NCBI RefSeq assembly: GCF_050320075.1 | Contig: NZ_CP190018.1 | Length of the DNA: 64,000 nucleotides | From: Escherichia coli | Lineage (GTDB): Bacteria; Pseudomonadota; Gammaproteobacteria; Enterobacterales; Enterobacteriaceae | Strand: one strand, 5' to 3' | Part shown: positions 1,789-63,136 of the stretch, in pieces | How the letters are laid out: every line of letters starts with the position of its first letter | Position numbering within the stretch: position 1 is the stretch's first letter | Notes under the pieces: model-generated | Databases searched by the model: none | What the model saw: the letters and a program-made list of their open reading frames with translations, nothing else | Told to the model about the DNA's origin: nothing | Program-made: the position numbers and the translations under genes

Positions 1789-2346
1789 TTACGCTTCCTG
1801 CTCTTTCTTGATACGTTGCACCGTCTGTGTGCTGACACTGAAATCTTTTGCTACGCTCCGAATTGATCCACCATTCGCGAGAGCGGCAGCAATTCCTGCT
1901 CGATCAATTGCTTTTCCATTACCACGTTTTGCTATACGTCCAGCGGCCTTAGCTGCGGCGATCCCTTCACGTTGACGCTCAAGCATCATTTCACGTTCCA
2001 TTTGTGCCACTGCTGCAAGCACTGTGAGCATCATATTCCCTGCGGGAGAGTTCTTCCCTGTCTTAAAGTCTTCTTTATGGAAATGCACAGACACGCCGCG
2101 CTCTGTTAATTGCTCAACCGTTGCCAGTAGGTCGGCTGTATTACGGCAAAGTCGATCAATGCTGTGAACATGCAAAACATCACCTTCCCGCACATAGTTC
2201 ATCATTGCCTCAAACTGTGGGCGCTGGGTATTTTTGCCTGACGCTTTATCTTCAAAGACTTTATCAAGAGTTACTCCAGCTAATTGACGGTCTGTGTTTT
2301 GTTGGACAGTCGATACCCTAATGTATCCAATATTAGCCATTTTCAT
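1789..2346 (-). CDS. serine recombinase (resolvase / DNA invertase family)
   Basis: N-terminal IGYIRVSTVQQ catalytic-serine motif, 185 aa, C-terminal helix-turn-helix-like tail; typical small serine recombinase architecture. Confidence 0.85.
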   Translation of the reverse strand: MKMANIGYIRVSTVQQNTDRQLAGVTLDKVFEDKASGKNTQRPQFEAMMNYVREGDVLHVHSIDRLCRNTADLLATVEQLTERGVSVHFHKEDFKTGKNSPAGNMMLTVLAAVAQMEREMMLERQREGIAAAKAAGRIAKRGNGKAIDRAGIAAALANGGSIRSVAKDFSVSTQTVQRIKKEQEA

Positions 2347-3265
2347 TTTCCTTCTGTGTTGATTTGTGTGTAGTGATTATTGATCGTGTTGATTAGGTGT
2401 GTAAAGGACTTTTTTCACTACGAAATTCGAAGGTTTTTAGTGTGGTGATTTAGCCTGCTTTATCACTACACGTCTTGCATGAGAATCATGTAGTTACATT
2501 TTGGTAAAATTAGCAAGCTATTAAATAGTGTGTTTATTTTGAAAAAATAATTTTTTGTTGCATTAAAGGAAACTTGTTCAATAAATGATAGAACGTTTAT
2601 TGAGCAACAATTTTGCAGTGATGCGCTATATGCCGCATTACATAAGGCTTTGCTGATGATAATGTAAAAGTGAAGAAAGCTAACATTGCTCTTTTAAGCT
2701 ACTTTTCATTGAATTTTTAGTATGGAATTACATAGGGATAAACTATGAATATTCTATGATTTACACGAGATATTCTTGCTGTTTAATTCCGGCTTTGGAG
2801 ATCAGGCATTCGCAAGAATACGCTAACGCGTTGCCTGAAAAGCCATTGCACATAATAGAGGTGAGCGTATAGCGAACTATCAATGTGATCATTGCACGAA
2901 TGATAATGAGTGGATATAGATTCTATATATCGTTAGATTGTAGTTTGATAGTTAATGTGTAATGTAGATTGTATGAGCGTATAGCGAATGTTAGTTAGAT
3001 CAACAACAAACTAACCTTTAAATCTCTTTTATCTTCTCATAGATATGGCTATGCGTAGCAACCGAAGGTTAGCCAATCATCTCTATGCAGCCGTAAGGCT
3101 GTTTTGCATGTAATAGTTGTTTGTTGTTGTTAGACAGTTACCAATTTATAGATCAGAGATAGATGTGAGCGTTGAGCGATACACTAATCATAACAACATC
3201 TTCTTACTTTTTAGTTAGTTGTTAGTAGGTTATTGTTATGCGCGCTATTAGCGCATGTATAAAGG

Positions 3266-3371
3266 TATCATTTTTATCTAAAGGGCTTTAGACATTTTTG
3301 ATACCTTTTTCATCTCTAAAAAAGTGTAATTTTTATCTAAAGGGGCTTTAGACATTTTTTACACCTTTTTC
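3266..3371. repeat. two direct copies of a ~45 bp repeat, each with palindromic core TCTAAAGG(G)CTTTAGA
   Basis: Copy 1 ~3266..3311 and copy 2 ~3327..3371 are near-identical; cores at 3277..3292 and 3337..3353; extra TCTAAAG half-sites near 3412 and 3487. Operator- or iteron-like. Confidence 0.6.
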
Positions 3372-3515
3372 TGTGCAAGACACTTACCAGTGTGCACAAT
3401 ACTTATGCTTTTCTAAAGCCGGGAATTTTTAAGTTTGATTGATCAATTGTTAACTTTAAAAGTTACTTTTAACAATCACTTAGACGATCTAAAGCCGCAA
3501 TTAACATAATATAAG

Positions 3516-3545
3516 TTGACATGCAAGCACTTTTTACCGTATAGT
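3516..3545 (+). promoter_or_regulatory. sigma70-like promoter candidate (TTGACA, 18 nt spacer, TATAGT)
   Basis: Perfect -35 hexamer at 3516..3521, -10 TATAGT at 3540..3545; transcription would start at the 23 bp tandem repeat. Confidence 0.4.
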
Positions 3546-3553
3546 GCGGGTTT

Positions 3554-3604
3554 CCTACCTACCCAGGAAATGAGTTCCTACCTACCCAGGAAATGAGTTC
3601 CTAC
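3554..3604. repeat. 23 bp tandem repeat CCTACCTACCCAGGAAATGAGTT, about 2.2 copies
   Basis: Exact copies at 3554..3576 and 3577..3599, partial third copy (CCTAC) following. Confidence 0.75.
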
Positions 3605-4556
3605 AATACTATAATTAAACTACAATTAAACTATCTTTTATAAATTCTTTTATCTTTTAAAGAATAATTATAGGGATACCCGTTAGGGAGTCTTCGACTA
3701 TCCCTTAATCTATTGGCATTCGCCAGAACCTTGCACAAGTTAGACTGATGCTTGTCATAACAGATAGTTTTTGTTTTTTGTTAGTAGTTAGCTGATCTAT
3801 GTTCGCTTTCCGCTCACAACGAATATGTAATCTACTATGTGCAAATAGCCTACGGCTTGCGTATGGCTAATAGTCTTGCGCTGTGCGCAGAACGATAATT
3901 AACTAACTACCATCTAACGATTGAAATTTACTTGTGCAATAACCTGAGCATAAGCGAATGGTTGTTAGTGTCTATGCGCTGTGCGCTTCAATAGTTCCAT
4001 TGATGAGGCTTACGCCAATCTAACGATCATCAATCTATTTAAGAGAAAATCTATTGTGCAATACTCTGACGAGTGCAATAACCTTGTGTGCTACGCGTTA
4101 GCGATGTTAGCACATAGACACAGACAACAACCAACAACAAACAAAAAAGAAAGAATGGTTTTAGTAGTTGAAGGTTAAATAAGTTTCTACCGCTTAAATC
4201 AAGCCGTAGGCGAGCTAAACGTATATAAGGTAGGGAAACACTTAGCGGTAATAGATTAGCTCGTTATAGAGCTTCTGAGGAGCTTTACAGGTATTTTATA
4301 AGATGTCTGAAATCAGAGTTTATCTATCCACCATCTTTCCATCATCTGATAAATCAAAAATAAGCCCCTTAAATAAGCCTCTGACGAGATAAACAACCTC
4401 TACATAAGGGAATGTATTGTTTTTATCAAAACCCCCGTCAGAGTGCGATTGAGAGCGTTTTAGACAACAGGGAAGAATTGTACCAGAGTAGGCAGCACAA
4501 AAAGCTAAGAAAAATTATAAGAAATTGAAAATGATCAAGTTTTTTATAAAAGAGGG

Positions 4557-4585
4557 TTGACAAAGCCGCCGTTATGTAGTATTGT
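4557..4585 (+). promoter_or_regulatory. sigma70-like promoter candidate (TTGACA, 17 nt spacer, TATTGT) for the plus-strand operon
   Basis: -35 at 4557..4562, -10 at 4580..4585; first ORF of a co-directional gene string starts ~115 nt downstream. Confidence 0.5.
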
Positions 4586-4701
4586 AAGTAGGGAGGGGAG
4601 AAACATCTCTCTCCATCTAAATAATCAAATCACAGAACACTGCACTTTGAGCCGTCAGGCTGCAAGGTGTGTTTTTCTTTTATCTAAATAAGGAGTTTTT
4701 T

Positions 4702-4884
4702 ATGAAATGGTATACACCGGAACACGTCGTAGAGGCATTTAAAAAAGGTGAGCTAACACGACATCAAGTAAGGATGAACAGGAACACAGCGCGGCGCTGT
4801 GGTTATCCAGAGCGTGAAAAATGCTTTGACGATGCACTAAAAATTATTGATGAACTGCGTAAGGCAGAAGCAGAGAAAGAATAA
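4702..4884 (+). CDS. hypothetical small protein (60 aa)
   Basis: AGGAG 6 nt upstream of ATG 4702 (MKWYTPEHV...); first gene after promoter 4557. Confidence 0.5.
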   Translation: MKWYTPEHVVEAFKKGELTRHQVRMNRNTARRCGYPEREKCFDDALKIIDELRKAEAEKE

Positions 4885-4907
4885 TAACAGGAGAAGGAGA
4901 AAACCAA

Positions 4908-5084
4908 ATGAATATTAATTTTGATTCTGCAACTTATAACGCGTTGTTAAATCGTGCAAAGGCAGAAGGGAAATCAATTCCAAAACTTGTTAATGAATTA
5001 CTAATTACAGTCCTTACAAAGGAGGAACTAAATGAACCAAAACACCAAAACAATTGCCGAAGCAAAAGCGCAATGCCTCAATAA
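4908..5084 (+). CDS. ribbon-helix-helix-like small DNA-binding protein (58 aa), not in ORF track
   Basis: GGAGAAGGAGA before ATG 4908; MNINFDSATYNALLNRAKAEGKSIPKLVNELL resembles CopG/Arc-type RHH N-terminus; 3-prime end overlaps the next gene by 53 nt in another frame. Confidence 0.45.
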   Translation: MNINFDSATYNALLNRAKAEGKSIPKLVNELLITVLTKEELNEPKHQNNCRSKSAMPQ

Positions 5085-5697
5085 GAAAGATAGTAAACAA
5101 ACATATGTAGTAGTTGAACAATGGCTGAAGATGTTTAAAAAGTGGTTCTCACCGTCAGGTAAGGAATACACCGCGACACTTCCAGCCGTTGAAATCTACA
5201 GTTACGTAGCTGGGTTCAATGAACAAGGGCAAGAATGTTACGCCAATCAAAAAACATTAGCTAATATTGGAATGGTTAGTGATCGTCAGGTGCGTAATAT
5301 TATAAATATGTTTATTGATATGGGTGTTCTTTCTGTAGAGGCACGGGACGGGCAAACATCACTCTATAAAGCATTACCCTTTACAGATGCACACATCACA
5401 CCACCGGAAGACGTAAAAACCTCTGTAAACGTAGAACAGCCTGCACCTGAAACACAGGAACCGTTAGAAGCGACACACTCTATTGAGCAGGAAACACAGG
5501 CAGAAATCACGGAACAATCTGATCTTTTTACATGGCTTATTTCCATAGACAGCCAAAAGCCTATGCAAGAAGAAACAGAAAATTTTATAAAACGTGCACT
5601 GACCTCGAAGAGGATAATTCTTGAAGATGATGCTTTTAATGCACTGATGATAGCCCTGAGAAAAGAAAGTGAAATCTATGACTCAATACCATTTTAA
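5032..5697 (+). CDS. hypothetical protein with winged-helix-like N-terminus and acidic C-terminus; possible replication initiator or organiser
   Basis: Strong AAGGAGGA before ATG 5032; segment ANQKTLANIGMVSDRQVRNIINMFIDMGVLS resembles winged-helix DNA-binding domains of phage/plasmid Rep-type proteins. Assignment is by resemblance only. Confidence 0.45.
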   Translation: MNQNTKTIAEAKAQCLNKKDSKQTYVVVEQWLKMFKKWFSPSGKEYTATLPAVEIYSYVAGFNEQGQECYANQKTLANIGMVSDRQVRNIINMFIDMGVLSVEARDGQTSLYKALPFTDAHITPPEDVKTSVNVEQPAPETQEPLEATHSIEQETQAEITEQSDLFTWLISIDSQKPMQEETENFIKRALTSKRIILEDDAFNALMIALRKESEIYDSIPF

Positions 5698-5709
5698 GGA
5701 GAATAAAAA

Positions 5710-5967
5710 ATGAAATACAACCTGACATTAAACAAACGAACATTCGAAATTACAGAAAGCGGCTACACACTGGCAAAACAGCTTGCTGATAGCAATTATG
5801 AGCTACCCGCGATTATCAGCTTTCAGGAGTTACCTCATAGTAAAGAACACACACAGCACTGGTTAAATCACCTGAGCCATTTTGGGGTAATTAAGTATGA
5901 GGCTGTGAATAGTCAGACGTTCCGTTTGCTTGAGATAAGCCCTTTCGAATTGTGGGTGGCGCTGTGA
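5710..5967 (+). CDS. hypothetical protein (85 aa)
   Basis: ORF track; GGAG upstream; co-directional operon member. Confidence 0.5.
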   Translation: MKYNLTLNKRTFEITESGYTLAKQLADSNYELPAIISFQELPHSKEHTQHWLNHLSHFGVIKYEAVNSQTFRLLEISPFELWVAL

Positions 5968-6170
5968 CCATATTCGATAGCGAATTTTCACAAGAAACCT
6001 TTCTGCAATATTTACGGGAAAGAACGGGAATGATTCTGTTTGATTCTGAGTTTTCCGGTGTGGTAGGTGAGCAATTTTTATATGCTCTTCTCGATAGCCT
6101 AAGTAAACAAGGATTATTGCAGTATACCAAAACTCATATGAAAGCATTCAGAATCGACTCTGTAGCTTAA
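5952..6170 (+). CDS. hypothetical protein (72 aa, GTG start) with internal FDSEFS...FL.Y.L duplication
   Basis: ORF track; start codon is GTG overlapping the upstream stop; internal ~45 nt direct repeat at DNA level. Confidence 0.3.
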   Translation: MGGAVTIFDSEFSQETFLQYLRERTGMILFDSEFSGVVGEQFLYALLDSLSKQGLLQYTKTHMKAFRIDSVA

Positions 6171-6206
6171 AACAAACAACTATCAAACATCTTGAAGGGT
6201 GAAACA

Positions 6207-6347
6207 ATGGAAAGCTTAATATTTTTCTTAGTATTTATGATCGCTTCCTTTTTTAACACTGCAACAAGAAAAACAAAACGAAGGGGAAGCAATGAGCAAG
6301 AAAAAAGGCAAGAAAAACGTAATAACAACTATTGGCGAAGCATGTGA
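6207..6347 (+). CDS. candidate small single-pass membrane peptide (46 aa), not in ORF track
   Basis: ATG 6207 after AAGGG; MESLIFFLVFMIASFF hydrophobic helix then a basic tail (RKTKRRGS...); overlaps the start of ORF 6292 in another frame, so only one of the two may be real. Confidence 0.25.
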   Translation: MESLIFFLVFMIASFFNTATRKTKRRGSNEQEKRQEKRNNNYWRSM

Positions 6348-6672
6348 TCAGTATGCGTTAAACAATCCTCGCAAATATAATTATGAGCATGATGCACAAC
6401 CAGGCGAGGAATTGATCTTTATACTTGAAGAACCAAGCCCAGAATTAACAGACGAAGAATTATCACTCATTCAAAGTATGGACGGTGTTTACTTTAATCC
6501 GCGCCCACGCAAAACAACGGTTATAGATTCCAGTCTTCTGAAAAGATGGCAGTGTTTGGGTTTTCAGGATATGCACCACTTTAGGGGGTATATGGCTCTT
6601 AACAGTCTGCAATATGCAGGGGTGAGAGAAACCGAATTACTTCTGCTTGATAAAATAAAAATCGACGATTAA
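6292..6672 (+). CDS. hypothetical protein (126 aa)
   Basis: ORF track; AAGGGGA 5 nt upstream of ATG. Confidence 0.5.
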   Translation: MSKKKGKKNVITTIGEACDQYALNNPRKYNYEHDAQPGEELIFILEEPSPELTDEELSLIQSMDGVYFNPRPRKTTVIDSSLLKRWQCLGFQDMHHFRGYMALNSLQYAGVRETELLLLDKIKIDD

Positions 6673-6713
6673 CAGCGTTTGCTGAATATAACCCTTAACA
6701 AAAGGAAAATAAA

Positions 6714-6935
6714 ATGATTAACAAAGCAATTTTAGAGACAACCACTTTTCACGATCTTAAACTTCTTTCTGAATGCTTCATAAGCCTGATTGAACGTGCA
6801 CAGGAAGAAAACGATCTCGGTTTACTCGATGATATTATAGACAACATTGCAACTTATAAAATCCCGCTCACTATTGCTATGAAGAAAGCTCGTGAAGCAC
6901 AACAACAATTAGAACAATCAGAGGAAGTGGCATAA
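6714..6935 (+). CDS. hypothetical protein (73 aa)
   Basis: ORF track; AAGGAAA before ATG; co-directional. Confidence 0.45.
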   Translation: MINKAILETTTFHDLKLLSECFISLIERAQEENDLGLLDDIIDNIATYKIPLTIAMKKAREAQQQLEQSEEVA

Positions 6936-7243
6936 TGAGCGAAGTACACAACGTAACTATTGAAATGATGGATCTGGTTATTGATTTACAGAAAGCAGTA
7001 AACGCGGCTCTGACTTTTCCAAGCGAGCTAACCATCACACAGGCGGTTATTAATCTGGAATCGACGCGGGAAGCACTGCAACTACTTATTGCAGCGTGCG
7101 AAGAGAGCGAAGGTGCACAGATTGAAGCTGATGACCTTTCTAATCTGATCATCGTCATTCATGACACCACTGAAATCATGAAAGAAGCGGTAGCAGATCT
7201 GCAACCCCTCATTAATGAATTAATCGATAAGGCTAACAACTAA
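6935..7243 (+). CDS. hypothetical acidic protein (102 aa)
   Basis: ORF track; start overlaps upstream stop (ATAATG), suggesting translational coupling. Confidence 0.5.
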   Translation: MSEVHNVTIEMMDLVIDLQKAVNAALTFPSELTITQAVINLESTREALQLLIAACEESEGAQIEADDLSNLIIVIHDTTEIMKEAVADLQPLINELIDKANN

Positions 7244-7452
7244 TGTCAAAAACTAAACGTGTGCGCCTTCTGGCGCTCACAGAAGAAGGGAAAGCGGGTA
7301 ATTGTTTCACAGTAGGTAAAGTGTATACCGGCTTACTCGACACTTACACCCGCCTGATGCACGTAACCGATGATAACGGTAACGATCAAACAATCGTTTT
7401 AGATGGTAATTGCGTATTTGGTGAGTGGGAACTGACAACCGAAAAAAGTTGA
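7243..7452 (+). CDS. hypothetical protein (69 aa)
   Basis: ORF track; start overlaps upstream stop (TAATG). Confidence 0.5.
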   Translation: MSKTKRVRLLALTEEGKAGNCFTVGKVYTGLLDTYTRLMHVTDDNGNDQTIVLDGNCVFGEWELTTEKS

Positions 7453-7471
7453 AAATAATTGCATTTACCTA

Positions 7472-7500
7472 TTGACTTTTACTAACAGAAATGTTAGAAT
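7472..7500 (+). promoter_or_regulatory. near-consensus sigma70 promoter (TTGACT, 17 nt spacer, TAGAAT)
   Basis: -35 at 7472..7477, -10 at 7495..7500; followed by ~820 nt without any ORF of 60 codons or more on the plus strand. Confidence 0.55.
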
Positions 7501-7506
7501 AATAAA

Positions 7507-8291
7507 TGTTGGGTTTGGAATCGAAAATAGGTGTTAGCTGGCGTTAATCCTTCTCCCGATTCTAATCCTACACGAAAGCGGGGTAGACCTCAAGGGGTCG
7601 CGCCCTATCTAACCTATCCCGCTTTCCCTTTACAGTGATTTTTTAGAAATTGTTTCCCTCGTTAATAGTTTCATTTTATTTTCCTTATTGCTTTATCAAA
7701 ATTGTGTCTTAAGAATGCAGGGGCTACGGATTTGGCCCCTCATCTTTTTAACCAACTGCGAAGCATGAAACACTTTCTAAAAACACTGTTTACAGTGTCT
7801 ATAAACCCCGTATAAACAAATAACGGTGTATATCTGTTTCTTGACAACAGTTTTCTACTAAGCTTAAAGCTGAATATGTTTTTGTTTGTTGGTGTTTATT
7901 AAGGTGCCAATCTTAGAACGCGAAAGCGTGGATGATCCCCGAAATCATCTCGGCACCGCCTCCTATTAAAATGAGAATCCAAAAGGTTTGAAAGTTAATA
8001 GGTGATTCCTGAAAGTCTGATCGATGCATCCACATTGTGAAAGACAGCGATTAGCCGTCGCACGAATAACAGGTTTATAGATTCCTCTCCAAAGGGGGCG
8101 ACCTCCTAAGCGCCTACTCCCTGTAAGCCTGTTATTCACCCCTCAAGGGTATATAACAATAAGCAATCTTATTCTTATATGTCCTCCTCTTTAAGTTCAT
8201 ATAAACTGCGATTTAGTAACACTCTATAACATCCTTCAAATGTTGTATTCATAAAGCCGGAAGCTTTCCCCTTCCGGTTTTATTTTTATCA
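7507..8291 (+). ncRNA. candidate structured leader or noncoding RNA region
   Basis: ORF-poor; stem-loops at 7575..7626 (GAAAGCGGG / CCCGCTTTC), 7719..7749 (AGGGGC, 10 nt loop, GCCCCT then T-run) and 8065..8136 (AATAACAGG / CCTGTTATT); ends at terminator 8257..8291. Boundaries and function are inferred. Confidence 0.3.
8257..8291 (+). terminator. rho-independent terminator-like hairpin (CCGGAAG, loop, CTTCCGG, then T-run)
   Basis: Inverted repeat with following TTTTATTTTTAT, just upstream of the 8331 ORF. Confidence 0.5.
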
Positions 8292-8330
8292 GCACTAAAC
8301 AAGACTGTTAGGAATAAAGGTAAAGCAATA

Positions 8331-8546
8331 ATGCAAAATCTCATTCTAAAGAATGGTAACGAAGAATTGGTTATCACTGATGAAACATTCAATGCTACGG
8401 CTTATATGCTGGGGATCACTCCCACAGAATTGAAAAAACATTGTGATAAGCTTTTTAAGTCTGCTGATGAACAGAAACCTACTATGCAGGATCTGATTAA
8501 AGCAAAAGCAGAACAAATCAAACAATCCAAAAAAGGAAACTATTAA
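8331..8546 (+). CDS. hypothetical protein (71 aa)
   Basis: ORF track; immediately precedes the capsid-like gene pair. Confidence 0.5.
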   Translation: MQNLILKNGNEELVITDETFNATAYMLGITPTELKKHCDKLFKSADEQKPTMQDLIKAKAEQIKQSKKGNY

Positions 8547-8548
8547 TT

Positions 8549-8920
8549 ATGGCTATTATTAATATGAGCGATCTGTTTCCAGTTCGCAAATCATTTACCG
8601 ATATCGTTTCATATGCAACTGATGAGTTCGGTTGTGTGCAATCTTTTACCGTTGATCTGGCGGTTGATGTTGAATGCGGCGATCTGATTACCAGTGACGG
8701 CGCTGAATATGTAAGCGGCGGCGATGTTCTTGTAGTTGTGTCTGATGCGGTATCCGCTGGCGACGCTAAAACCGTTAACGTGCTGCGTAGCAATGCCGGA
8801 CTGGTTTGCATCAAGTCCGATGCTCTGAATGTTGAAGGCGCTGTGAAAGAAGCTGCTATTGCTGCCCTGGCTGCAAAAGGTTTCCAGATGGCTGGTTTTA
8901 ACACTGTATTCACATCTTAA
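8549..8920 (+). CDS. putative virion structural protein (123 aa), possibly head-decoration-like
   Basis: Small Gly/Ala/Val-rich protein directly upstream of and coupled to the 342 aa gene; codon usage is strongly biased toward highly-expressed E. coli codons. Resemblance to a lambda D-type decoration protein is by size and arrangement only. Confidence 0.4.
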   Translation: MAIINMSDLFPVRKSFTDIVSYATDEFGCVQSFTVDLAVDVECGDLITSDGAEYVSGGDVLVVVSDAVSAGDAKTVNVLRSNAGLVCIKSDALNVEGAVKEAAIAALAAKGFQMAGFNTVFTS

Positions 8921-8938
8921 TATAAAGGAATAAAAATA

Positions 8939-9967
8939 ATGATTATTGGTAATGAATCCGTCGATCTGGCTCCGCTGTTTAGTCTGCACGACTCTCGCAA
9001 CTTCCTGTTAACTTCTCTCGACTTTACTGATCCGGTAGGTGTGAGTTCTCATAAAGTGGCTGTTAGCCAACTGGTGGAAACTAACGAATCTCTGTTCAAC
9101 AAAGAAACCTCTCGTTTCTCTTCTGAACATAACGTGACTAAACGTGAACAGGGTAAAGAATTTTTAGTAGAGATCCCCTACTTCCTGCGTGAAGATATGA
9201 TTAAGCCGCAAGACGTGCAAGGCAAACGTAAACCAGGCGCTACCGTTGAAGAAACTCTGACAGATATCTACGCGGAATATGTTGCTAAGCACCACATTGC
9301 TTTCCAGCGTACTAAAGAAAGCGTGCTGGCTGCTTCCCTGTTCTCTGGTCGCACTTACACCCCTAAAACTGATGATGTGCTGATCCAGTGGGGCGATCTG
9401 TTTAGTGTTGTTCCGATGACTGCAACCATCGACGCATCAAGCACCACGCCTTCTATGGTGTTCCAGCAATTCGATCAGATGCATACAGACGTTATTACTA
9501 AAGCACAAAGCCAGGCGGCTGCTGTAGAACGTATCGTTGTATTCTGTAAACCTGCTGCTTTCAACGCTATCCGTTACAGTGCTGGCATGGTTAACGCGTT
9601 CCAGTATGCAAGCCCTACCGATGACGCAAACATCGTTTATAGCGTGCGCTCCCTGCTGCCAGGTGTGACTACCTTCACTATTCCTGGGACTAACATCGAT
9701 ATCGTTAAAGTTACTGATCCGCTGCTGCTGGCTCATATGACTTCTGATGCGGTTGCTGTTCCGAAGTTCGCTAAAGGCTCTAACGTCTATCAGAACATTT
9801 TCAGCGCTCCTTCTTCAACGTTCGACCTGCTGAATTCTGGCGCGGCTGAATATTACAGCTATGCGTTTAGCCCAGCACGTAACGACGCTGTAAACGTAGT
9901 TACTGAGAATAGCCAGATGGTTGTAAACCACGGCGTAGGCTTCACTGTACAGATCACAGTAGCGTAA
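8939..9967 (+). CDS. putative major capsid-like protein (342 aa)
   Basis: Size and position (after a ~120 aa protein) resemble a lambda D/E-type head gene pair; AAGGAA RBS; codons strongly optimised (CGT, CTG, TCT, AAC, GAA) unlike neighbouring genes. Not confirmed by homology. Confidence 0.45.
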   Translation: MIIGNESVDLAPLFSLHDSRNFLLTSLDFTDPVGVSSHKVAVSQLVETNESLFNKETSRFSSEHNVTKREQGKEFLVEIPYFLREDMIKPQDVQGKRKPGATVEETLTDIYAEYVAKHHIAFQRTKESVLAASLFSGRTYTPKTDDVLIQWGDLFSVVPMTATIDASSTTPSMVFQQFDQMHTDVITKAQSQAAAVERIVVFCKPAAFNAIRYSAGMVNAFQYASPTDDANIVYSVRSLLPGVTTFTIPGTNIDIVKVTDPLLLAHMTSDAVAVPKFAKGSNVYQNIFSAPSSTFDLLNSGAAEYYSYAFSPARNDAVNVVTENSQMVVNHGVGFTVQITVA

Positions 9968-10120
9968 TAAAGCGTTAATAGTCGTTTCCTGTGCGACTGG
10001 AAATAAAACAGGCAATAAGGGCAAAAGGGATTATTAAACCTGTAGCGCAAATACAGTAAACAATCTCTTTTGCCCTTTTTTCGTTTATACCGTCTATTAA
10101 AATATTGTGAGAGAAAAATC

Positions 10121-10312
10121 ATGAGCGAACAAAACAACAATCCAGTTGAGATCCTGAAAGCTGTTTCCACCTTACCGGAAGATATTCTGAATATCTCTCA
10201 AGTGTGTAAGTTTTTAGGGATCTCTAATACTGCTGTACGTCAAAGAATCTTCACTACTGGCTGCTCAGCTATGGAAGCAGTGCAATACTACGTAACAAAA
10301 CAAAACAAATAA
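10121..10312 (+). CDS. hypothetical small protein (63 aa), possible HTH
   Basis: Internal ATG of ORF 10070..10312 (MSEQNNNPVEIL...); segment ISQVCKFLGISNTAVRQRI is helix-turn-helix-like. Confidence 0.35.
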   Translation: MSEQNNNPVEILKAVSTLPEDILNISQVCKFLGISNTAVRQRIFTTGCSAMEAVQYYVTKQNK

Positions 10313-10330
10313 AAGGTAAAGGAAAATATT

Positions 10331-12172
10331 ATGGATTTAAACATCTCAACCTTAACAAACAAGGTTGTATTTAAAGTTGATTTTGCATCATTACAGAAAG
10401 CAAGGGACGCAGGGAAGAAATTTCAGAAAGAAATGGAAAACCTAACCAATCCAACATTGAAAGGGAAGAAGGCTAAACGAGCTATAGACGAGGCTCATGA
10501 TCTGGTAAAGGCTCGTAAAGCTGCACAGGCTAAAACTGATGCCAAAGCGTCAGACAAGCAAGCTCAAACCGATAAGAAGAACGCTGATAAGGTGGCAAAG
10601 GCAGAAGCTAAAGCGAAGGCTAAAGCCGCTATAGCTGCCGATAAACAGATCCGCGCTAAAGCGACAATAGCAGAGAAAGCAGAGATTAAGCGCCAGCAAG
10701 CTTTCAGACAGCTTGAAGGGATTAAGAAAGGGCGTATGGGCGACGGTATGGACTCCGCCCAATACTACAAAACGTTGCAATACATCAAAGCACAAACGGC
10801 AGCGTATGAGAAAGGCGCTATTAGTCAGGCTAAGATGAATCACCTGATCCGTGATCGTATCACGTTAGAACGCCGTGCGGCTGCTGTAAAAGCTCGCCAG
10901 GTGGCGGCTGATGGCGGTAAATATCCACATATGGCTAAACAGCTTAAAGGCGGTCATATAGGCGGTGGTGTAGGTGCAATGGTGGGCGGTGCCGCTCTCA
11001 CTGCTGCCACTCTCGGCGGTGCTGCGATATTCAATACCGTAACCGATCAGGCAAGCAAGATCACAGACACTAACCGCAAGGCAAAGGCTGTCAACGTAAA
11101 CACTAACGCCCTGTTAGCACTTAATCAGTACGGCTTAGAACACGGTGTCGATAGTTCCGTAGACCAACGTCAAGACAACCTTAAAGACGTTCAAGAGCGT
11201 TTAGGTGAATCCGTAGGGAATACCAAATGGGACGCTAAGAAAGGTCGCTGGGCTGGCGGTAATGGTGCCGTCGATAACATCCTTAATAAATATGGTTGGA
11301 GTCCTGAACAGATTAAAGGTTTCCAGACTGATCCATTAGGTTTCCTGGGCGCTGTAGTGAAAGAAGGAGAACGCCGTGGACTCTCTGATCAGGAGCAGGG
11401 TCACATCCTTGAAGACCTTGGAAATGATTTACAATATTTCCGTGGTGCTTTCAGTCGTAACGGTGAAGAGCTAAATAAAACCATCGTTAAGATGCAAAAA
11501 GCCAATGCCACCTATGCGCAAGCGGATCTTGACGCTGCTGAACGTCTGCAAGCTGTACAGGCTAATATGAATATGGCCTGGGAAGGTAGTAAGAAAGCTA
11601 TCATGACGGGATTCGGTGAAGAGTTCGACGCTCAGGCTGGTGAAGAGTGGGCGCAAATGTTGAAAGATCTCAATCCTCTGTTTAAAGAACTTGGAAGCTC
11701 AACGGCTGAAATGATGAGCGCCTTTGCTGGTGCTGTATCGTGGCTTACTGCTGCATACCAGAATATAAATCCAGAGAACAAACATGAAAACCTTGATTCG
11801 TCCGGTATGTATTATAAGGATTCGTTTGTAGGCGGCATGGTTGATTGGGGTCGTAGTGCTTTAGGCTTATCGCCTATCCCTGGCACGGAAGACAAGCCAA
11901 CGACTGGCGGAACTGCAATTCAGAACTATTCAAGCCCGTCCGATAACGTGCAATCCCTGAAAGAGAACGTTAGCCGTGATCTGAACACTACCCCATCTAT
12001 GACGTATGCGCCAAGCATTGTCGTAAACGTGCCAGAAAGTAAGGTTGATGTGAATATCGCTCCTGATGGTAGTCAGCTTGGATCATACCTCGATTACAAA
12101 GTGGGAAGTATCCAACAAGATTTTGAACGTAGTTTCACGTTGGCGGCTCTGTCTGGGCAAGCACCAAGTTAA
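10331..12172 (+). CDS. large coiled-coil / glycine-zipper protein (613 aa); tape-measure-, scaffold- or DNA-pilot-like
   Basis: Lys/Ala-rich coiled-coil stretch (KAKAKAAIAADKQIRAKATIAEKAEIKRQQ), then glycine-zipper hydrophobic segment GGHIGGGVGAMVGGAALTAATLGGAAIF. Function inferred from composition only. Confidence 0.5.
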   Translation: MDLNISTLTNKVVFKVDFASLQKARDAGKKFQKEMENLTNPTLKGKKAKRAIDEAHDLVKARKAAQAKTDAKASDKQAQTDKKNADKVAKAEAKAKAKAAIAADKQIRAKATIAEKAEIKRQQAFRQLEGIKKGRMGDGMDSAQYYKTLQYIKAQTAAYEKGAISQAKMNHLIRDRITLERRAAAVKARQVAADGGKYPHMAKQLKGGHIGGGVGAMVGGAALTAATLGGAAIFNTVTDQASKITDTNRKAKAVNVNTNALLALNQYGLEHGVDSSVDQRQDNLKDVQERLGESVGNTKWDAKKGRWAGGNGAVDNILNKYGWSPEQIKGFQTDPLGFLGAVVKEGERRGLSDQEQGHILEDLGNDLQYFRGAFSRNGEELNKTIVKMQKANATYAQADLDAAERLQAVQANMNMAWEGSKKAIMTGFGEEFDAQAGEEWAQMLKDLNPLFKELGSSTAEMMSAFAGAVSWLTAAYQNINPENKHENLDSSGMYYKDSFVGGMVDWGRSALGLSPIPGTEDKPTTGGTAIQNYSSPSDNVQSLKENVSRDLNTTPSMTYAPSIVVNVPESKVDVNIAPDGSQLGSYLDYKVGSIQQDFERSFTLAALSGQAPS

Positions 12173-12228
12173 TGATAAAGAGAATGTTTAATCACCATTT
12201 AAAACACTCTTATAAGGAATTAAGCATA

Positions 12229-12259
12229 TAAGAGGCTCCCATTACAAGGAAGCCTCTTT
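12229..12259. terminator. bidirectional terminator-like hairpin between convergent 613 aa gene and integrase
   Basis: Inverted repeat AGAGGCT(CC) ... (GGA)AGCCTCT flanked by A/T-rich runs. Confidence 0.4.
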
Positions 12260-12279
12260 ATTGCGCCTATGGCGTTGTT

Positions 12280-13441
12280 TTAAGCCTTAAAATCAATATT
12301 TAATTCATATCTTACTAATTCTACATATTCAGCTAATTCTGGAATGCTTGCCCCTTGTGAGTAGGTGCGAAAGGCTTCTGTTTTAGCTCTCTGCTCTGTA
12401 TGTCCGGTAATGGCACCGATCCGCTGTTCAGGCACTCCGGCACGATCAAGACAAGTGATAAACATCCCGCGCAAGCTGTGAAAGCATTGTCTATTTGTAG
12501 CGATTGGCAAGACGCTACGACGTAAACGTGAGAACGCTTGAGAATAGAACGGGCCTTTCTTACCGTCGATTCTTTTTACTTTGTTCGAGTGAGGGAACAA
12601 ATATTCACCATAATTATGATTTAAATATTCATCGACAATAATCGATAGTCTCGAATGTATCGGAACGTGCCTGATCCCTGCTTTAGTCTTACTTTTGCTG
12701 ATATAAAAACAGCGTATTCCTTCCACAGTTACAACCTCTGACTTTTTCAGACTTGCCAGTTCGTCTAATCTGCATCCTGAAAACAAGCCCATTAAAATAA
12801 TATTTCTGATCTCCGGCTCCGCTGCATCAAGTAGCTTTTGCATTTGTTCAGGTGTAAACGGTTGATAACTCTCGATTGTGCGACGTGCTTCGAGATTATG
12901 ACCGTGAAAAGGGTTACTGTCTGGTATTCCGTCATAACGGCGTTTAGCAAATTCATAGAGCGATCCTAAGCATGTAAGCCAGTTTTGACGAGATTGATCG
13001 GCTGCTCCTCGTTGCTTCTGGTCATCTAAGAATACTGTTACAAGCCGTCTGCCTATTTTCTCAATATGAATATCATCTTTCTGAATGCTTTGTAAAAATA
13101 GCTCAACGGCCCTTGCTGATTTCTGTAGTGTTGAGTATGAACGACGCTCTCTGTAGCATTCGGCGTATTCGTCACGTATTAAGCATAGGGAAGGCGATGC
13201 ATAACCGCGTTTTACGGCTCTTTGCGTGTTTTTATTGGCCCTTGCCTCTGAATGTAAGGATTCAATAGCTTGTTGTAACCTCCTTTCGGGGTTATCAGGA
13301 TTATGTTTCCGCTTTAGTTCCTCCCATTCTAATAATAGATGGTTTCTGAATCTTCTCGCCTCATTCAGATCTCGTGTAGATGTGCTTTTTCTCCACAACT
13401 TGTAAGGGTAAAGATGACGTAAGTATTTAGGAACAAAAATC
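12280..13441 (-). pseudogene. tyrosine recombinase / integrase with 5-prime end disrupted by IS1
   Basis: C-terminal catalytic motifs of tyrosine recombinases (R in GCRLDEL, HSLRGMF, GHTEQ...FRTYSQG). The ORF's first 5 codons (to 13455) lie inside the IS1 inverted repeat, so the native start and promoter are missing. Confidence 0.8.
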
Positions 13442-13496
13442 GGTGATGCTGCCAACTTACTGATTTAGTGTATGATGGTGTTTTTGAGGTGCTCCA

Positions 13497-13772
13497 GTGG
13501 CTTCTGTTTCTATCAGCTGTCCCTCCTGTTCAGCTACTGACGGGGTGGTGCGTAACGGCAAAAGCACCGCCGGACATCAGCGCTATCTCTGCTCTCACTG
13601 CCGTAAAACATGGCAACTGCAGTTCACTTACACCGCTTCTCAACCCGGTACGCACCAGAAAATCATTGATATGGCCATGAATGGCGTTGGATGCCGGGCA
13701 ACCGCCCGCATTATGGGCGTTGGCCTCAACACGATTTTCCGCCATTTAAAAAACTCAGGCCGCAGTCGGTAA
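13497..13772 (+). CDS. insA: IS1 InsA
   Basis: 91 aa product matches remembered IS1 InsA ([32 protein letters not shown]...). Confidence 0.95.
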
Positions 13773-14194
13773 CCTCGCGCATACAGCCGGGCAGTGACGT
13801 CATCGTCTGCGCGGAAATGGACGAACAGTGGGGATACGTCGGGGCTAAATCGCGCCAGCGCTGGCTGTTTTACGCGTATGACAGGCTCCGGAAGACGGTT
13901 GTTGCGCACGTATTCGGTGAACGCACTATGGCGACGCTGGGGCGTCTTATGAGCCTGCTGTCACCCTTTGACGTGGTGATATGGATGACGGATGGCTGGC
14001 CGCTGTATGAATCCCGCCTGAAGGGAAAGCTGCACGTAATCAGCAAGCGATATACGCAGCGAATTGAGCGGCATAACCTGAATCTGAGGCAGCACCTGGC
14101 ACGGCTGGGACGGAAGTCGCTGTCGTTCTCAAAATCGGTGGAGCTGCATGACAAAGTCATCGGGCATTATCTGAACATAAAACACTATCAATAA
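13691..14194 (+). CDS. insB: IS1 InsB reading frame (expressed as InsAB by frameshift)
   Basis: 167 aa ORF overlapping insA in the -1 frame, typical IS1 organisation. Confidence 0.9.
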
Positions 14195-54527: not shown

Positions 54528-57500
54528 TGTCGCCGAGACACTAGATCCTTTGCGCTTGCCCTTACAGGGCGAGCGCCTGATTGAAGCCTCTGCCGGCACA
54601 GGCAAAACCTTTACGATTGCGGCGCTCTATTTGCGCCTGTTACTTGGACTAGGCGGTTCTGCCGCCTTTCCCCGCCCGCTGACCGTTGAAGAACTGCTGG
54701 TGGTCACCTTTACCGAGGCTGCCACGGCAGAATTGCGCGGTCGTATCCGTAGCAATATCCATGAGTTGCGCATCGCCTGTCTGCGTGAAACCACCGACAA
54801 TCCACTGTACGAACGCCTGCTGGAAGAGATCGACGATAAAGCGCAAGCCGCGCAGTGGTTGTTGTTAGCCGAACGGCAGATGGATGAAGCGGCAGTCTTT
54901 ACTATTCACGGTTTTTGCCAGCGCATGCTCAACCTGAATGCCTTTGAATCCGGCATGCTGTTTGAGCAGCAGCTGATTGAAGATGAGTCTCTGCTACGCT
55001 ACCAGGCCTGCGCCGATTTCTGGCGTCGCCACTGCTACCCGCTGCCGCGTGAAATTGCCCAGGTGGTCTTTGAAACCTGGAAAGGGCCGCAGGCGTTGCT
55101 GCGCGATATTAATCGTTATCTGCAAGGCGAAGCACCGGTTATCAAAGCACCGCCGCCCGATGATGAAACGCTGGCTTCCCGCCACGCGCAAATTGTGGCG
55201 CGTATCGACGCCGTAAAACAGCAGTGGCGCGACGCGGTGGGTGAACTGGATGCGCTGATCGAATCTTCTGGTATTGATCGACGCAAGTTTAACCGTAGCA
55301 ATCAGGCTAAATGGATCGACAAGATCAGCGCCTGGGCAGAAGAAGAGACCAACAGTTATCAGTTACCGGAGTCGCTGGAAAAATTCTCTCAGCGTTTCTT
55401 AGAAGATCGCACGAAAGCCGGGGGGGAAACCCCGCGACATCCACTGTTTGAGGCGATCGATCAACTGCTTGCAGAACCATTGTCGATCCGCGATCTGCTG
55501 ATAACCCGCGCATTGGCTGAGATCCGCGAAACAGTAGCGCGTGAAAAACGCCGCCGTGGCGAATTGGGTTTTGATGACATGTTAAGTCGGCTCGATTCCG
55601 CGCTGCGTAGCGAAAGCGGCGAGGTGTTGGCAGCGGCGATCCGTACGCGATTCCCGGTGGCAATGATCGATGAATTTCAGGATACCGACCCCCAGCAGTA
55701 CCGAATTTTTCGCCGTATCTGGCACCATCAGCCGGAAACCGCATTGTTGCTGATTGGCGACCCGAAACAGGCCATATATGCATTCCGGGGTGCGGATATC
55801 TTCACTTATATGAAGGCGCGTAGCGAAGTTCACGCCCACTACACTTTAGATACCAACTGGCGCTCCGCACCAGGAATGGTGAACAGCGTGAATAAGCTTT
55901 TCAGTCAGACTGATGACGCGTTCATGTTTCGCGAAATTCCTTTTATTCCAGTGAAATCAGCCGGGAAAAATCAGGCGTTACGTTTTGTGTTTAAAGGTGA
56001 AACGCAGCCTGCGATGAAAATGTGGCTGATGGAAGGCGAAAGCTGCGGCGTTGGCGACTATCAAAGTACCATGGCGCAGGTATGTGCTGCGCAAATCCGC
56101 GACTGGCTACAAGCCGGACAGCGGGGCGAAGCGTTGCTGATGAACGGCGACGACGCGCGTCCGGTGCGTGCTTCGGACATCAGTGTGCTGGTGCGCAGCC
56201 GCCAGGAGGCCGCCCAGGTGCGCGACGCCTTAACGTTGCTGGAAATCCCTTCCGTTTACCTTTCGAACCGCGACAGTGTTTTTGAAACTCTGGAAGCGCA
56301 GGAAATGCTTTGGTTGTTGCAGGCGGTGATGACGCCCGAACGTGAGAACACCCTGCGTAGTGCGCTGGCAACGTCAATGATGGGGCTGAACGCGCTGGAT
56401 ATCGAAACGCTGAACAATGACGAACATGCGTGGGATGCGGTAGTCGAAGAGTTCGATGGTTATCGGCAAATCTGGCGCAAACGTGGCGTTATGCCGATGC
56501 TGCGGGCGCTGATGTCGGCGCGTAACATTGCTGAAAACTTGCTGGCAACGGCAGGCGGTGAGCGGCGTCTTACCGATATCTTGCATATCAGCGAACTGCT
56601 ACAAGAAGCCGGAACGCAGCTGGAAAGTGAACATGCGCTGGTACGCTGGTTATCGCAACATATCCTCGAGCCAGACAGTAATGCCTCCAGCCAACAAATG
56701 CGCCTCGAAAGTGATAAACATCTGGTGCAGATTGTCACGATCCATAAATCAAAAGGGCTGGAATATCCGCTGGTCTGGTTGCCATTTATTACCAATTTCC
56801 GCGTCCAGGATCAGGCGTTCTATCACGATCGCCACTCGTTTGAGGCTGTTCTGGATCTTAATGCTGCGCCAGAAAGCGTCGACCTCGCGGAGGCCGAACG
56901 TCTGGCGGAAGATCTGCGTTTGCTTTACGTGGCGCTGACGCGTTCGGTTTGGCATTGCAGTCTCGGCGTTGCACCGCTGGTGCGCCGTCGTGGCGATAAA
57001 AAAGGTGACACCGACGTCCACCAAAGTGCGCTCGGGCGTTTGCTGCAAAAAGGGGAACCGCAAGATGCGGCAGGGCTTCGCACCTGTATTGAAGCGTTAT
57101 GCGATGATGATATTGCCTGGCAAACGGCACAAACGGGTGATAACCAGCCCTGGCAGGTTAATGATGCTATAACTGCAGAACTGAATGCGAGGACACTACA
57201 ACGATTGCCCGGCGATAACTGGCGTGTCACCAGCTACTCCGGTTTGCAGCAGCGTGGTCACGGTATCGCTCAGGATCTGATGCCACGGCTGGATGTTGAT
57301 GCCGCAGGCGTGGTCAGCGTCGTTGAAGAACCGACGTTAACACCGCATCAGTTCCCGCGCGGTGCGTCACCGGGGACATTCTTGCACAGTTTGTTTGAAG
57401 ACCTCGATTTTACCCAGCCGGTTGACCCGAACTGGGTACAGGAAAAACTGGAACTCGGCGGCTTTGAATCGCAGTGGGAACCGGTGTTGACCGAGTGGAT

Positions 57501-62840: not shown

Positions 62841-62917
<77 letters not shown>

Positions 62918-62949
62918 TCACCGTACTGCTTTATTTCATCAAATTTGAT

Positions 62950-63026
<77 letters not shown>

Positions 63027-63059
63027 TCACCGTACTGCTTTACTTCATCAAATTTTAAT

Positions 63060-63136
<77 letters not shown>

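Follow-up and report, generated by a model that had tools for sequence, protein, structure and literature searches.

A probable unannotated membrane peptide gene overlapping a conserved small gene in a phage-like island of Escherichia coli

We analysed a 64,000-nt stretch of the E. coli chromosome (the window) and found that 6207..6347, on the + strand, probably constitutes a functional, unannotated gene for a single-pass membrane peptide, tied to the conserved 126-aa gene that follows it (hypothetical protein, 6292..6672, +) and that it overlaps by 56 nt. On the sequence comparisons presented below, we put the probability of this reading at about 0.75. A protein-coding gene is very probably what the region holds, and is by far the best reading of the comparative evidence. 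A first-pass annotation had proposed a 46 aa single-pass membrane peptide at this place; it is very probably a genuine small gene, as its frame is kept in both close and distant relatives. The same annotation had named loss of the frame in related elements as one observation that would speak against the peptide, and the frame turned out to be preserved in all five lineages that we distinguished, A to E.

The ORF was present exactly as first described, running from ATG 6207 to TGA 6345-6347, that is, 46 codons plus the stop, and encoding MESLIFFLVFMIASFFNTATRKTKRRGSNEQEKRQEKRNNNYWRSM. The program-made ORF list opens it at an upstream TTG (6192, 51 aa) but ATG 6207, unlike TTG 6192, is the start common to the relatives. 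Its first 28 codons (6207..6290, +), which include the start, the hydrophobic segment and a first basic cluster, RKTKRR, form a conserved core that does not overlap the downstream gene. A Shine-Dalgarno-like motif, GAAGGGTG (6194..6201, +), lies 5-7 nt 5' of ATG 6207. The first-pass annotation had credited both ORFs with a plausible ribosome-binding site. This holds for the 126-aa gene, whose SD (-7.9 kcal/mol) ranks in the 2nd percentile of all ATGs, whereas the small ORF has only a weak to moderate one, with a pairing energy to the anti-SD of -4.6 kcal/mol (17th percentile of all ATGs). The latter value is comparable to those of the weaker annotated genes of the island (-2.9 to -5.6 kcal/mol), and in lineage B the pairing drops to -2.5 kcal/mol, no better than at a random ATG. 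The small ORF thus has the start codon and ribosome-binding site of a small membrane protein gene, with weak SD pairing, and this SD would set a low output.

Automated annotation passes over the ORF. PGAP called it in 0 of the 20 RefSeq genome regions inspected, and left at its place a gap of 96-136 nt (374-401 nt in two lineage-C genomes) while calling the neighbours. The exact peptide was not found in a collection of 15 billion proteins, nor were the peptide strings found in the searched literature or in the O157:H7 Sakai small-gene supplements.

The first-pass annotation had described a hydrophobic helix followed by a basic tail, and the peptide bears this out. Codons 4-16 (6216..6254, +) encode a hydrophobic, aromatic-rich segment, LIFFLVFMIASFF, predicted to form a membrane-spanning helix. 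Its best 13-residue Kyte-Doolittle mean, 2.90, was the highest among the 203 ATG-started ORFs of 30-60 aa found on both strands of the window. The tail carries a net charge of +7, and the combination of a hydrophobic N-terminus and a basic tail occurred in just one other ORF of the window. AlphaFold2 modelled a single helix over residues 2-45, with a pLDDT of 74 overall and 85 over the first 10 residues. The peptide thus combines a single predicted TM helix with charge asymmetry, on a hydrophobic core of 13-16 residues that is short for a membrane span. By the positive-inside rule, the product would be an inner-membrane peptide oriented N-out, C-in, with a very short N-terminus outside, the 13-16-residue helix across the membrane and the basic tail in the cytoplasm. 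The charge of the tail and its free length can largely be traced to the DNA from which it is read: translation here runs, in another frame, through the purine-rich SD (GAAGGGGA) and then the Lys/Arg-rich 5' end belonging to the 126-aa gene. Indeed, the purine-rich SD stretch encodes the residues K-R-R-G-S of the small peptide.

The small ORF belongs to an integrative phage-like island adjoining the ygeH/ygeG region. The 1.8 kb surrounding it was found in 70 of 5426 complete genomes, always on the chromosome, and a lineage-B query matched 317 complete genomes, including those of O26:H11, O111 and O104:H4 pathogens. The island encodes a replication-initiator-like HTH protein (5032..5697), a lambda gpE-type major capsid protein (8939..9967), a 613-aa tape-measure-like protein (phrog_16051, E = 2e-64) and a tyrosine integrase (12280..13455, -), and a DNA invertase lies further to the left. 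The island proteins scanned included no recognisable terminase or portal. We found no second copy of the island in the window, an apparent match at 55657 (-) being the reverse-strand coordinate of an ORF at 8249-8344, and a literature search returned no obvious published description of this island type. Searches of phage and plasmid DNA gave short matches just to the 5032..5697 gene, leaving the small ORF and the 126-aa gene unmatched. No match came either from a distant search of 5700-7500 against phages or from viral contigs scanned for the 126-aa protein. Directly beside the integrase lies an IS1B-family transposase (window 13497-14194; L001 19798-20495), followed by a LuxR-type regulator and ygeH/ygeG, and the island may be disrupted at its right end. 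Relatives of the island were also seen on four separate contigs of 13.6-14.3 kb (L011, L012, L013 and L018), which look circularly permuted and carry no integrase. Their gene order is tape-measure-like, Dit-like, Imm_superinfect (-), and, further on, DEAD-box helicase, small genes, capsid and again tape-measure-like; these contigs may represent the island in an episomal or excised form, or else assemblies bounded by repeats. Elsewhere in the window, and unrelated to the small ORF, are three tandem tRNA-Met (CAT) genes (62841-63136, -).

Within the island, the small ORF sits in a run of small co-directional genes. The 68-aa gene upstream (5964..6170, +), in the same operon, stops 36 nt before ATG 6207. 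A promoter-like site was found at 4557-4585, and the first + strand terminator-like site downstream of it at 7719; because the + strand is free of terminator-like sites over this interval, 4702..7452 looks like one operon with the small ORF inside. The consensus scan found no promoter-like site on the + strand between 4585 and 7432, and no promoter- or terminator-like site on either strand in 6170-6350. An Rfam search at E <= 1 over 2000-14000 gave 0 matches. The small ORF would thus be transcribed within a co-directional operon running from the 4557-4585 promoter-like site to about 7452. Directly after the stop of the 68-aa gene lies an AACAAAC heptad (6171..6179, +), present in 1 copy here and in 1-3 copies in E. 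coli variants; as seen at loci L002-L009, it behaves as a small slippage-prone repeat.

Beyond the operon, the island contains a stretch of about 880 nt devoid of annotated genes (7452-8331), in which Rfam found no match. Promoter-like sites (7432-7459 and 7472-7500, +) and terminator-like hairpins (7719-7740 and 8251-8283, +) map to this region, and all related loci have a similar gap without annotation ahead of their capsid module. The stretch could harbour a non-coding RNA or a packaging site. A second small ORF with a hydrophobic N-terminus and a basic tail, MRFCIIALPLFLTVLFSADKNKTGRGKLPAL (8249-8344, -; 31 aa), starts at an internal ATG of the 8249..8392 ORF and is antisense to a terminator-like hairpin and to the start of the gene 8331..8546.

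Lineage A comprised 19 copies carrying the region, whose flanks share 84-100% identity with the window. With the exception of L020, all of these retain the ATG and the first 34 codons; L020 is an error-prone Logan contig with a 1-nt deletion in a T-run of the ORF core, and its homopolymer deletions are probably sequencing errors. The other 18 copies had 0 indels inside the small ORF. Indels that are not multiples of three clustered just outside it, with changes of 7 or 14 nt in the AACAAAC heptad and of 1-3 nt in the spacer between the SD and the ATG, which indicates that such indels are tolerated outside the small ORF. In the 28-codon core, the changes were I5V, V9I, F10F, S14S, F15F, T20R and T23P, and pN/pS was 0.17-0.25 in informative pairs. 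In one further relative (L010), the whole two-gene module was replaced. We also considered a fusion or frameshift product, as two 37-aa proteins (P0001 and P0002) share the start ATG of the small ORF and continue into the frame of the 126-aa gene. They come from a contig with two 1-nt homopolymer deletions within 60 nt, most likely Logan sequencing errors, and this idea was discarded. All high-quality genomes carry the T6 run, and the frame of the 126-aa gene is closed upstream at 6238.

The end of the ORF varies within lineage A. Codon 35 (6309..6311, +) is CAA in the window and TAA in most other lineage A variants, in which the peptide is therefore 34 aa long. The responsible change, C6309T, was seen in L006, L007 and L011-L019 and is synonymous in the 126-aa frame (GGC to GGT). 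That a change silent in one frame introduces a stop in the other points to the 126-aa frame as the constrained one in the overlap, and shows that the 46-aa form can dispense with its last 12 codons. From these alignments, the conserved unit of the small ORF is some 28-34 codons, the last 12 codons being lineage-specific.

More distant relatives were reached through the partner gene. We searched with the 126-aa protein using HMMER and compared the DNA of six homologues and of several E. coli genomes. Among cluster representatives, 19 proteins were retrieved (E <= 0.001); aligned family members were 23-84% identical to the window protein, and the aligned stretches of the HMMER homologues 27-57%. 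Every homologue with an intact N-terminus was preceded by a short gap in which an ATG-started ORF opens, to end inside the homologous gene. Such an ORF, of 30-49 codons, occupies this place in five deep lineages, in which the downstream protein shares 31-50% identity with that of the window. The lineage B peptide is MANAFMAIFIVTMALSFYNPHKKRENGKKEKE(QLKTY) (30-37 aa; L022-25, L029, L030 and L032-36), that of lineage C is MLTAIWLTFFIYAGMFSSYKDKNNNGKKRTQRISTY (35-41 aa; L026, L037 and L038), that of lineage D is MIDIVTYLGYFVLISMMLTEISLETIHIERRVSELQKRKKYNFKSESDK (49 aa; L027) and that of lineage E is MIIAMYWLFAFYAVWTLTRTNGSFPLRGINGTKRKKYALPP (41 aa; L028). In all lineages, A to E, an aromatic-rich hydrophobic N-terminus of 13-16 residues is followed by polar and basic residues. 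A profile search of the genome contigs with a narrow alignment retrieved two lineage-B loci only. Gene callers have elsewhere called homologues of 37 aa (EFR18594.1; UniRef A0A828U5Z6_ECOLX), 36 aa (L026) and 49 aa (L027).

Several observations indicate that it is the small frame that is conserved. In every lineage the ATG frame was the sole open one, the other two containing 2-7 stops, and we found no antisense ORF conserved across lineages. Distances from the small ATG to the downstream start were 85, 76, 73, 97, 88, 70 and 85 nt, all equal to 1 modulo 3. Lineage C showed whole-codon indels (+5 codons in P0076, -1 codon in P0079), P0077 had a compensated pair of frameshifts, and P0078 was intermediate between lineages C and E. 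Indels of 1, 2, 7 and 14 nt were found just upstream of the small ATG. In the hydrophobic part, substitutions were synonymous or of the I/V/L/F type, and pN/pS, estimated within and between sublineages from 3-30 substitutions per pair, was 0.23-0.6 (0.17-0.6 overall). The coding frame is thus conserved over five lineages, which share ancestry and are not fully independent.

One could still argue that the region is a non-coding spacer, the ORF being a by-product of T-rich then purine-rich DNA, for instance an S1-binding enhancer or RBS region, kept for RNA reasons or through recent descent. PGAP never annotates the ORF, its SD is weak, and 5-14% of dinucleotide shuffles of such gaps gave an ATG-started ORF of at least 30 aa crossing the downstream start, so that the bare ORF alone is not beyond chance. 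With hydrophobicity added, the proportion fell to 0.1-0.5% per locus, local T-richness not being modelled in this estimate. What places the small ORF beyond chance is its recurrence in five diverged lineages. Some genomes do tolerate frame changes. In L031 (E. coli O25:H16 F5505-C1, 2480-2616), a T inserted in the T-run (T6) brings a stop after 18 aa; this island copy is otherwise decayed, its upstream gene being reduced to 9 codons. In L033 (O104:H4 RM8376, 911-1015), an extra A before the downstream ATG causes the tail to be read in another frame. Yet a spacer fails to explain why an ATG stands at the 5' end of the sole open frame in each of the five lineages, or why whole-codon indels, a compensated frameshift and synonymous-biased change are found inside the ORF next to free indels just upstream, and no conserved RNA structure was found. 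We therefore regard a non-coding spacer as highly improbable, and return to the reading of a peptide gene tied to its partner.

The first-pass annotation had the small ORF compete with the 126-aa gene. This is misleading, as the two overlapping frames have been conserved as a pair. The 126-aa gene is in the +1 frame relative to the small ORF, and its SD and ATG (6280..6294, +) lie within codons 25-29 of the latter. In every lineage the small ORF ends 17-56 nt inside the partner gene, with an overlap of 56 nt in the window, 20 nt in the 34-aa form and 17-53 nt in the other lineages. Hence the upstream ORF ends just past the downstream start and contains the downstream RBS. Ribosomes translating the small ORF would pass over the RBS and start codon of the partner, and this geometry makes translational coupling or re-initiation likely. 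In translationally coupled overlapping pairs of phages and operons, which work by termination-reinitiation, the usual overlap is 1-4 nt. The present pair resembles these in having an upstream ORF that ends shortly past the downstream start and a downstream RBS inside the upstream coding sequence. It differs from them in its longer overlap, and an occluding structure is not conserved. The suggestion of coupling comes from the geometry. As for the 126-aa protein itself, it matched no Pfam, PHROG, NCBIfam or PADLOC family, and its AF2 model (pLDDT 75) matched no PDB fold. In L021 (1192-1596), a deletion that removed the small ORF has produced a 134-aa fusion protein. Its N-terminus comes from the 85-aa family (window 5710..5967), and the rest corresponds to the C-terminal two thirds of a 126-aa family protein.

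This arrangement raises the possibility that the small ORF is a mere leader, in which just the act of translation tunes or enables initiation of the 126-aa gene and the peptide has no function. The constant position of its end inside the downstream gene fits such a role, as do the freely varying length and sequence of the tail. Moreover, in lineage A the T-rich 6243..6253 (+; GCUUCCUUUUU) can pair with 6280-6290, which is the SD of the 126-aa gene. This hairpin was present in the MFE fold, with a z-score of -0.97. In L016 and L017 it is weakened by two uncompensated changes, both silent in the small frame, and lineages B, C and E lack it; there the downstream TIR has a pairing probability of 0.17-0.45. 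A structure masking the downstream RBS is thus confined to lineage A. RNA structure was accordingly rejected as the reason for conservation, the hairpin being neither significant nor conserved and being broken by synonymous changes; in lineage A it could make coupling obligatory, but it may be non-functional. In addition, the 126-aa gene has its own strong SD. Above all, a pure leader would need no particular peptide, whereas the hydrophobic, aromatic-rich first ~16 codons are kept in five lineages with pN/pS < 1 and conservative replacements. These considerations make a leader without a functional product unlikely, and rather suggest that the selected part of the membrane peptide is its helix, which would function at the membrane, either as a small modulator or in partnership with the 126-aa protein.

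The first-pass annotation had likened the peptide to type I toxins and lysis modulators. Type I toxins are defined together with an antisense RNA antitoxin that is encoded in cis or in trans and has its own promoter (PMC8309996). At 46 or 34 aa, with a KD13 of 2.90 and a modelled helix, the peptide has the size and hydrophobicity of a type I toxin, and it shares with Hok/Gef, Ldr, TisB, Fst and TxpA a small hydrophobic helix, a charged tail and residence on a mobile element. One may thus envisage a toxic membrane peptide, type-I-toxin-like or kil/lysis-modulator-like, held low by a weak or sequestered RBS; size, single helix and tail recall in particular the Ldr, Fst, TxpA and PepA1-type toxins. 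Support for sequestration came from lineages C and E (L026 563-703; L028 198-353), where the SD of the small ORF pairs with a pyrimidine stretch inside the ORF, about 60 nt downstream. Such sequestration was reached by 0 of 150 synonymous recodings in L026 and by 2 of 150 in L028. It is absent from the window lineage, where the TIR pairing probability, 0.38, is below the null, and being significant in L026 and L028 only, it was dropped as a feature of the family.

Further evidence speaks against a toxin. The small ORF is not a stand-alone transcription unit with a regulated 5' UTR, as a type I toxin gene would be, since a co-directional gene stops only 36 nt before it and the following gene overlaps it. 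Neither a promoter-like site of its own nor, on the minus strand, an antisense promoter- or terminator-like site was found over 6170-6350, in a consensus scan that could miss a weak promoter, and the nearest minus-strand promoter-like site runs from 6142 to 6113, pointing away from the small ORF. With neither a conserved ORF nor a promoter signal found, an antisense gene or antisense RNA was set aside. No match to the toxin families Hok/Gef, Ldr, Ibs, ShoB, TisB, Zor, Fst and TxpA was found in Pfam and NCBIfam, nor any to a PHROG, Pfam lysis/holin or PADLOC defence family, nor to an RNA in Rfam; the only matches were compositional and below threshold, to YxzE (18 bits, cut-off 40) and PP0621 (13.7, cut-off 45). 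The island showed no endolysin or lysis cassette, the neighbours being small proteins and the replication-initiator-like HTH protein. A role as type I toxin or lysis modulator is thus unsupported, and we consider a toxic peptide very unlikely.

The window peptide most plausibly works like small single-pass membrane proteins of the AcrZ, MgrB and MgtS kind, by analogy of size, single hydrophobic helix and charged cytoplasmic tail. Bacterial single-pass membrane proteins of 50 aa or fewer of this kind are routinely missed by annotation (PMC12648545; 10.1101/511675), and bacterial small proteins have been found by initiation profiling (bioRxiv 10.1101/511675). It differs from them in showing no sequence relationship, in lying on a mobile phage-like island and overlapping a downstream gene, and in being known from sequence alone. 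Its nearest known relative is a 37-aa E. coli 'hypothetical protein' (EFR18594.1, EHU15181.1; UniRef A0A828U5Z6_ECOLX), which is the lineage-B counterpart. Like the window peptide, this protein is encoded directly before, and overlapping, a gene of the 126-aa family in related islands, and both have a hydrophobic N-terminus, an S-F-[FY]-N motif and a basic cluster. The two are about 30% identical, and the counterpart has no name, family or described function. It was called in some older annotations but not by PGAP, whereas the window allele was never called.

With these results, a widespread group of E. coli islands gains a conserved family of small membrane proteins that had no name before. 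They also provide a clean case of a small overlapping gene that was missed, betrayed by a suspicious 'intergenic' gap and recovered by comparison across lineages. In practice the consequence is modest, a single gene added to the annotation. Should the peptide work jointly with the 126-aa protein, the pair would offer a handle on the biology of the island's early operon. A bolder idea, which we hold as rather doubtful, is that the two are the indispensable halves of a two-component module, translated as one overlapping unit, in which a membrane-bound anchor or effector is joined by a basic, soluble protein. Islands of this capsid- and tape-measure-encoding family would use it to act on the envelope of their host, on a helper phage or on a competitor phage. 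If this were true, the module would be the founding member of an unrecognised family of small membrane effectors encoded by satellites or prophages.
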